This document shows, piece by piece, positions 1-660 of a DNA stretch of 660 nucleotides. The notes below the pieces were generated by a model that worked only from the letters and a program-made list of their open reading frames with translations, had not been told where the DNA came from and did no database searches. The stretch comes from Escherichia coli. GTDB lineage: Bacteria > Pseudomonadota > Gammaproteobacteria > Enterobacterales > Enterobacteriaceae. Position numbers and translations under genes: made by a program. The stretch's first letter is position 1. Each line of letters begins with the position of its first letter. Location: NCBI RefSeq assembly GCF_003334255.1, contig NZ_QOWU01000201.1, one strand, 5' to 3'.

Positions 1-660
1 CCCTCATCCTCGCTGCGGATAAGTTTGCCGGTCAGGTCGTGGTGATAACGCTGTGTGCGGCCGTCAAAGCCGGTTTCCTGTATCAGCCGGTCGAGTACAT
101 CGTAACGGAAGGTGGTGTGGCTGCCGTTTTCACTGGTCAGGCGGATGACCCGTCCGGCAGCATCGTATTCCATACTGCGCGTCAGCCCGCCCTGCGTGGT
201 ACAGATGGCCTTTCCCCACGCATCGTACTGTGTCCCGTTTCTGCTGCCGTCCGGGGCAATGACGGCGGTCAGGTCACCGGCGATGTTGTATTCATACCGC
301 GTTTCATGGCCCTGCGTGTCTTTCACGGCAATTAACTGTCCACGGCTGTCGTATGCGCGGTACTGACTCAGCCCTTCCTCGCGGTGCACCGCCGTCATCT
401 GCCCGAAGCGGTCATGGTCATAACGGGTTACATAACCGGAACAGTCGGTGAAGCTCAGCAACTGACCGTAACGGCTCCACGTCATGGTTTTCCGGCTGCC
501 GGTGGCATCTTCCGTTGCGCAGGGTAAGTCACTGTGTGGATTATCATAACGGTAGCGGGTGATATCGCCGTCAGGGGCAGTTTCCTGAATCAGACGGCCC
601 AATTCATCATATTCCCGGCGCAATTCCAGCCCGTCAGGCCCGGTGGCTGACGTTAACTGG
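1..660 (-). CDS. rhs: Rhs-family core protein (YD-repeat region), internal fragment truncated at both window edges; RhsA/B/C-type enterobacterial core
   Basis: Seen in sequence: the reverse complement read from window position 659 gives 219 consecutive sense codons with no stop, ending at position 3. Translation begins QLTSATGPDGLELRREYDELGRLIQETAPDGDITRYRYDNPHSDLPCATEDATGS and ends SHTTFRYDVLDRLIQETGFDGRTQRYHHDLTGKLIRSEDEG. It contains repeated YD dipeptides in the Rhs/YD-repeat context (xYxYDxxGRL(I/V), spaced about 21 residues). Established knowledge: this matches, from memory, the conserved core of E. coli-type Rhs proteins; no database search was run. Paralog (rhsA, rhsB, rhsC etc.) cannot be assigned because the cores are near-identical, so the symbol is the family designation only. 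Absent from the ORF track because it runs off both edges. Confidence 0.94.
36..611 (-). repeat. Tandem array of about ten YD (Rhs) peptide-repeat units encoded on the minus strand, period about 63 nt; protein-level repeats, not identical DNA repeats
   Basis: Seen in sequence: the codons for the Y-D (or degenerate) dipeptide fall at plus-strand coordinates 606..611 (EYD), 543..548 (YRYD), 465..470 (degenerate YG), 417..422 (RYDHD), 348..353 (YRAYD), 285..290 (degenerate YEYN), 222..227 (QYD), 162..167 (EYD), 99..104 (RYD) and 36..47 (degenerate YHHD). Spacing is 60 to 69 nt. On the plus strand the recurring hexamer is atcgta or atcata, the reverse complement of tacgat or tatgat. Confidence 0.85.

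Follow-up and report, generated by a model that had tools for sequence, protein, structure and literature searches.

Register of the YD repeats in an internal segment of an Escherichia coli rhs toxin gene

Introduction

The YD repeats of Escherichia coli rhs genes were described decades ago, and many solved structures have settled their role as hairpins in the shells of Rhs proteins, Tc toxins and teneurins. The solved Rhs shell nearest in sequence to the segment analysed here is that of Pseudomonas aeruginosa Tse5 (PDB 8cp6), whose barrel is made of 40 β-hairpins with the consensus YDxxGRLV; DXXGR forms the turn and its Gly is highly conserved (PMC10684867). Within the motif, the cavity-facing Tyr commonly gives way to His, Arg, Trp or Phe, and the Asp is often exchanged too, for Asn and Ser among others (PMC10684867). 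Hairpin, turn and substitution rules have also been laid out elsewhere (bioRxiv 10.1101/2024.02.26.582050). The same YD-repeat β-hairpin shell architecture is found in the TcB/TcC (BC) cocoons of Tc toxins and in the YD shells of teneurins, which have other delivery systems and biological roles.

We analysed a 660-nucleotide stretch of E. coli DNA, referred to below as the window, in which a preliminary description had noticed YD repeats. The window is a member of the group of E. coli RhsA, RhsB and RhsC (NF041261), with no feature that sets it apart. It was also like E. coli RhsD (K-12 b0497), to which its translation aligned without gaps at 75% amino acid identity; the order of the ten units was preserved, as were W-S and Y-N, but at the places of His82 and His207 (YDHD and YHHD in the window) RhsD carries Tyr (YEYD and YHYD). 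Tse5 matched at E = 1.6e-48 (amino acids 16–218 against Tse5 397–600) and shares with the window the hairpin consensus and the substitution of Tyr by Trp or His and of Asp by Asn or Ser; unlike the window, it comes from another genus, has another N-terminal domain and toxin, and carries W-N and YDYD at units 3 and 4. Identity to the Tc cocoons and teneurins was only 13–20%, with Foldseek matches to 4igl, 6suf and teneurins at E = 1e-9 to 1e-7 and phmmer matches to teneurins at E = 2e-15 to 9e-5. The YD repeats of the window are thus correctly recognised and real, but ordinary and already known.

Results

Identity of the window

The window was covered by one open frame, which read from base 659:

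1–659, minus strand: open reading frame fragment of 219 codons with 0 stops, running off both window ends; residues 473–691 of a 1411-aa E. coli Rhs core protein

This frame was stop-free over all 219 codons, and the remaining five frames held 4–15 stops each. Because the real frame exits the window at both ends, a list of complete open reading frames contained only short antisense or out-of-frame ones. The translation was 100% identical to residues 473–691 of the 1411-aa RhsB of strain G1/2, and at the DNA level three E. coli genomes contained rhs genes that matched the window at 100%. When complete E. coli genomes were searched, the 660-nt window was matched in 3897 of 5426, with a median of 4 copies per genome. 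The matching genes were annotated rhsA, rhsB, rhsC or 'RHS element core protein', and in the matched records the rhs gene was followed by yhhH, yibA or ybfB, at the place where a cognate immunity gene would be expected.

Family models gave the same assignment. NF041261 (RHS element core protein) placed the window at model positions 481–699 with E = 6.6e-129; the window alone scored 431.7 bits against a full-length cut-off of 2000, since only positions 481–699 of the 1261 in the model were covered, and the full gene at the identical locus of G1/2 scored 2647 bits, above that cut-off. This full gene also contained the Rhs-associated core domain TIGR03696 at amino acids 1170–1247 and, at 1238–1247, the sequence PISDIDPLGL, a PxxxxDPxGL-type motif, followed by a 164-aa variable C-terminal tail. 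Within the window, the YD-repeat model TIGR01643 matched five stretches with 96.1 bits (cut-off 15.8) and Pfam RHS_repeat (PF05593) matched six domains (E 1e-10 to 1e-4), and Rfam returned no match on either strand. The window itself is without start, stop, toxin domain, flanking gene, plug or cleavage site. Collectively, these data indicated that the window lies within an ordinary rhs toxin gene of E. coli, encoded on the minus strand and with a core of the RhsA/B/C type.

The G+C content of the window was 58.6%, rising to 67% at third codon positions. The E. coli genome averages about 51%, well below these values; rhs cores have long been known for their high G+C content.

Incomplete rhs copies are often found beside rhs genes, and we considered whether the window could derive from such a decayed or orphan fragment, a pseudogene whose repeats would survive as a vestige without being expressed as a shell. 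Copies with 99.8% identity were indeed found in genes annotated as frameshifted, namely rhsC of N18-04097 and rhsA of ETEC1720. However, the 219 codons of the window are intact, its three 100% matches lie in genes without a pseudogene flag, and the two such genes that were inspected, with 1411 aa in G1/2 and 4134 nt in G6/7, have their full length, so that a pseudogene origin appears unlikely. The frameshifted rhsA of ETEC1720 (3263–7070 of its extracted locus) adjoins an IS1 element, and rhsC of N18-04097 lies at 2882–7074 of its extracted locus.

Register of the repeat units

The preliminary description had listed ten repeat motifs, seven of them canonical YD and three degenerate. All ten were present when the reverse complement was translated: in the minus-strand frame, YD occurs at 606–611, 543–548, 417–422, 348–353, 222–227, 162–167 and 99–104, YG at 465–470, YN at 285–290 and YHHD at 36–47. 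All ten lie in the single frame from base 659, and the other five frames are without YD. Measured from these motifs, the units are spaced by 21, 26, 16, 23, 21, 21, 20, 21 and 19 aa; anchored on the turn Gly, the spacing becomes 21, 23, 21, 21, 21, 21, 20, 21 and 21 aa. The family motif in full is Y-x-Y-D-x-x-G-(R/Q/K)-L. As the motif has this Y-x-Y-D-x-x-G-x-L form, a count of YD dipeptides puts units in the wrong place, and anchoring on the turn Gly or on a hidden Markov model (HMM) yields the true and far more regular register. The units in this register, with the motif pair of each, are as follows.

612–659, minus strand: tail of a further unit, aa 1–16, QLTSATGPDGLELRRE, its YD lying beyond the window; the unit HMM places aa 1–10 at model 6–15 and Pfam places aa 1–32 at model 6–37
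549–611, minus strand: unit 1, aa 17–37, 21 aa, Y17-D18 (YDELGRL), canonical; Pfam and unit HMM; strand end at Y17
480–548, minus strand: unit 2, aa 38–60, 23 aa, Y38-D39, canonical; Pfam match 17–39 with Y38-D39 at model 22–23; loop 38–47 in the structural model
417–479, minus strand: unit 3, aa 61–81, 21 aa, W61-S62 (window 474–479), degenerate; Pfam aa 62–96 at model 2–36; G65 at HMM position 5; strand end at W61
354–416, minus strand: unit 4, aa 82–102, 21 aa, H82-D83 (window 411–416), degenerate; YEYD in RhsD and YDYD in Tse5; D83 at HMM position 2; strand end at H82
291–353, minus strand: unit 5, aa 103–123, 21 aa, Y103-D104 (YDSRGQL), canonical; Pfam, unit HMM and structural model
228–290, minus strand: unit 6, aa 124–144, 21 aa, Y124-N125 (YNIAGDL), degenerate; unit HMM and family alignment (N12 S5)
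168–227, minus strand: unit 7, aa 145–164, 20 aa, Y145-D146 (YDAWGKA), canonical; Pfam, unit HMM and structural model
105–167, minus strand: unit 8, aa 165–185, 21 aa, Y165-D166 (YDAAGRV), canonical; Pfam, unit HMM and structural model
42–104, minus strand: unit 9, aa 186–206, 21 aa, Y186-D187 (YDVLDRL), canonical; unit HMM, alignment and structural model
3–41, minus strand: unit 10, aa 207–219, cut by the window end, H207-D208 (window 36–41), degenerate; YHYD in RhsD; D208 at HMM position 2; strand end at H207

The count of ten units therefore stood, while the identities of two did not: YG and the YD at 417–422 are out of register, and instead of seven canonical units and three degenerate ones there are six canonical and four degenerate (WS, HD, YN and HD). 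The turn Gly is present in eight of the ten, and the units follow the YD-repeat consensus (Y)DxxG(R)L(I/T). The YG at 465–470 forms the final x-G in W-S-x-x-G and sits three residues downstream of the motif pair W-S. The YD at 417–422 forms the leading Y-x in Y-x-Y-D; it sits two residues upstream of the motif pair H-D and belongs to the end of unit 3. Similarly, YHHD at 36–47 reads as Y-x-H-D, that is, Y-x-Y-D with the second Tyr changed to His; the family residues at this pair were Y5 H3 W3 and D9 S2.

We weighed this register against the one in which YG and the YD at 417–422 are themselves motif positions and the seven canonical and three degenerate units are irregularly spaced. Both dipeptides exist at those places, and their Tyr residues are fairly well kept among enterobacterial relatives (Y64 in 11/17 and Y80 in 16/17), but the reading needs spacings of 26, 16 and 23 aa, against 23, 21 and 21 in the alternative. 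The Pfam coordinates also oppose it. Four Pfam matches start with Tyr at model position 1 (Y17, Y103, Y145 and Y165), and in the match covering unit 3 the first residue is S62, which sits at model position 2, so that W61 fills the Tyr column. A unit HMM derived solely from the six units common to the two registers placed G65 in the turn-Gly column and D83 and D208 in the Asp column. Unit 2 was not recognised by this six-unit HMM and was placed by Pfam coordinates, its YD and the AlphaFold model only.

Homologous proteins pointed the same way. In the gapless alignment with K-12 RhsD, RYEYDRFGQM and RYHYDLTGKL stand opposite RYDHDRFGQM and RYHHDLTGKL of the window; in the Tse5 alignment, EWNRFGLL stands opposite TWSRYGQL, the unit 3 motif being W-N there, and RYDYDNEGRL opposite RYDHDRFGQM. 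Both RhsD and Tse5 thus have Y-D at positions 82–83. A family alignment of 17 sequences, reaching down to about 34% identity, was compiled from homologues that were partial proteins of at most 384 aa, trimmed to the matching region; P0027, part of which was unalignable and frameshift-like, was left out. Here position 61 was W12/R3/F2 and position 62 S12/N5, position 82 was Y14/H3 and position 83 D14/N3, and position 81, the Asp of the displaced YD, was variable (E9/D3/Q3/R1/S1). The predicted strands described below end at W61 and H82. It is extremely unlikely that the originally reported register is correct. At the level of sequence comparison, the corrected register rests on five independent lines, namely Pfam coordinates, the unit HMM, RhsD, Tse5 and the family alignment.

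The claim that degenerate positions are normal in this family was borne out, as W-S, H-D and Y-N match the kinds of substitution reported for Tse5 (PMC10684867). The Asp position of unit 6 is Asn or Ser throughout the 17 sequences (N12 S5). Since the conservative replacements W-S, H-D, Y-N and H-D are position-specific and conserved in relatives, they represent old features of individual repeats and not recent decay. Two units depart from the consensus at the turn: in unit 9 the turn Gly is replaced by Asp, and in unit 2 the turn is atypical, with NPHSDL in place of a Gly-containing turn (YDNPHSDLP), followed by a long loop. AlphaFold gave a 10-residue loop in unit 2, and three distant relatives add a 5-residue insertion there.

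We also observed that TDCSG at aa 71–75 (window 435–449), in the second turn of unit 3, was the most conserved stretch of the window. It was invariant in 17/17 family members, down to about 34% identity, and was present in the Tse5 alignment as well; P. protegens RhsA has D-C-S-G.

Predicted structure of the segment

An AlphaFold run on the single sequence gave a pLDDT of 61, too weak for assigning the register, so the 17-sequence alignment was supplied in a second run. The second model, a prediction for the isolated fragment, had a mean pLDDT of 93.5 with no residue below 70. The model was all β, with 21 strands, two per unit. Ten of its strands end at residues 17, 37, 61, 82, 103, 124, 145, 165, 186 and 207, each before a turn, and the next strand starts 5–6 residues later, or 10 later in unit 2. 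In this predicted structure, the strand ends fit the corrected register but do not fit motifs at Y64 or Y80.

Foldseek comparison of the model with the PDB revealed Tse5 (8cp6_B) with a query-normalised TM of 0.89, an rmsd of 2.1 Å and 37% identity, and P. protegens RhsA (7q97) with a TM of 0.86. Further down were the Rhs cores of Advenella and Salmonella bongori, Tc toxin BC components and teneurins. Together with the sequence match to Tse5, the TM of 0.89 supports the earlier proposal that the repeats correspond to the β-strand repeats of the Rhs shell.

Periodicity in protein and DNA

A periodicity of about 63 nt had been attributed to the YD repeats. When the translation was compared with itself using BLOSUM62, the autocorrelation rose to one sharp maximum, at a lag of exactly 21 aa (63 nt; z = 9.4), with harmonics at 42 aa (z = 6.7) and 62 aa (z = 5.2); in 5000 shuffles, the highest z across all lags reached 4.9. 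Seven YD dipeptides were seen against 1.34 expected from the Tyr and Asp content, and at least seven arose in only 3 of 100,000 residue shuffles. With this peak and the Pfam RHS_repeat and TIGR01643 matches, the periodicity proved real.

At the DNA level, a lag of 63 was again the top lag, with a z of only 4.2 against codon shuffles, and Tandem Repeats Finder reported nothing on the window DNA because the units are too diverged in nucleotides. A direct-repeat search of the window returned only two weak pairs. In the first, 45 nt long with 76% identity, window 60–104 and 567–611 correspond to units 9 and 1 at an offset of 507 nt (eight units), and both copies encode YD..(G/D)RLIQET..DG; this was the sole sizeable trace of the repeat in the DNA. 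The second was a 24-nt pair 60 nt apart. The strong period in the protein and the faint signal in the DNA indicate an old protein-level repeat and not a DNA tandem array.

The notion that the periodicity is a product of chance or composition, or a property of a gene on the plus strand, can be dismissed as having practically no probability: shuffles never came near the observed autocorrelation and, although plus-strand open reading frames of 98 and 84 aa exist, the plus frames hold 4–11 stops and no YD, the inspected records annotate no such gene here and Rfam was blank on both strands.

Plus-strand genes were rejected as candidates on the grounds of no annotation, no homology evidence and stop-filled frames. 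The two antisense open reading frames just mentioned have GTG starts, and probably arise as a side effect of the high G+C content of the coding strand facing them:

39–335, plus strand: antisense open reading frame, 98 aa
112–366, plus strand: antisense open reading frame, 84 aa

Relation to the rhs paralogs

We compared the window with the rhs genes of K-12 and found 3 nucleotide differences from rhsB, 4 from rhsA and 14 from rhsC, none of them on a motif position. K-12 rhsA and rhsB differ from each other at one synonymous site in this segment. K-12 rhsD had 78% nucleotide identity to the window, and rhsE, an annotated pseudogene of about 2 kb that is shorter than a full rhs gene, gave no match. 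The identical 660 nt occurred at the nikR-rhsB-yhhH locus of G1/2 and at the yibF-rhs-yibA (rhsA) locus of G6/7, and the copy at the ybfA-rhsC-ybfB locus of N18-04097 had one mismatch; within the extracted loci these copies lie at 8001–8660 (G1/2), 5001–5660 (G6/7) and 5001–5660 (N18-04097). Since the same 660 nt occupy different rhs loci, a piece of rhs core of this length is unassignable to a paralog.

The suggestion that the degenerate units would be the most informative ones for telling paralogs apart was not upheld. Besides the sharing of the same 660 nt between rhsA and rhsB loci, divergence from K-12 rhsD peaked in the canonical units 1 and 2 (38–41% of nucleotides), compared with 35% in the leading partial unit and 21–23% in the degenerate units, and in the 17-sequence alignment the degenerate units did not exceed the others in mean column entropy. 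Among the motif residues, discriminating value was confined to H82 and H207: RhsA/B/C-type cores carry His at both places, and RhsD and most relatives carry Tyr.

Discussion

The window almost certainly contains ten YD units of 20–23 aa (mode 21 aa, 63 nt), together with the tail of an eleventh, that form hairpins of the wall of an Rhs shell. Our analysis turned up no evidence against this explanation. Each unit would be a β-hairpin in which the first strand ends at the aromatic motif residue (Tyr, here also Trp or His), D-x-x-G-(R/Q/K) makes a tight turn, and the second strand follows. The hairpins are expected to stack side by side into a spiralling β-sheet that makes up the shell wall, of which the window would be a mid-wall segment. 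By analogy with homologues, the closed shell of the full protein may enclose the variable C-terminal toxin until delivery, and the toxin would be released after autoproteolysis at the DPxGL motif. The roles suggested here for single motif residues are likewise drawn from the literature on homologues.

We also considered the two His residues. The positions equivalent to H82 and H207 face the inner cavity in the Tse5 structure (PMC10684867), and one might imagine that they adapt the interior of the shell in this lineage, to a cargo toxin or to pH-dependent release, for instance. We hold this to be very unlikely; neutrality is much more likely because the Tse5 paper counts His among the common replacements of Tyr.

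The occurrence of identical and near-identical copies at rhsA, rhsB and rhsC loci fits sequence exchange between rhs paralogs. Divergence from rhsD was uneven along the window, amounting to 35–41% of nucleotides in the first ~60 codons (window 480–659) and 8–23% in the rest (3–479), with the lowest value, 8%, in unit 7. This unevenness suggests a mosaic history of the core.
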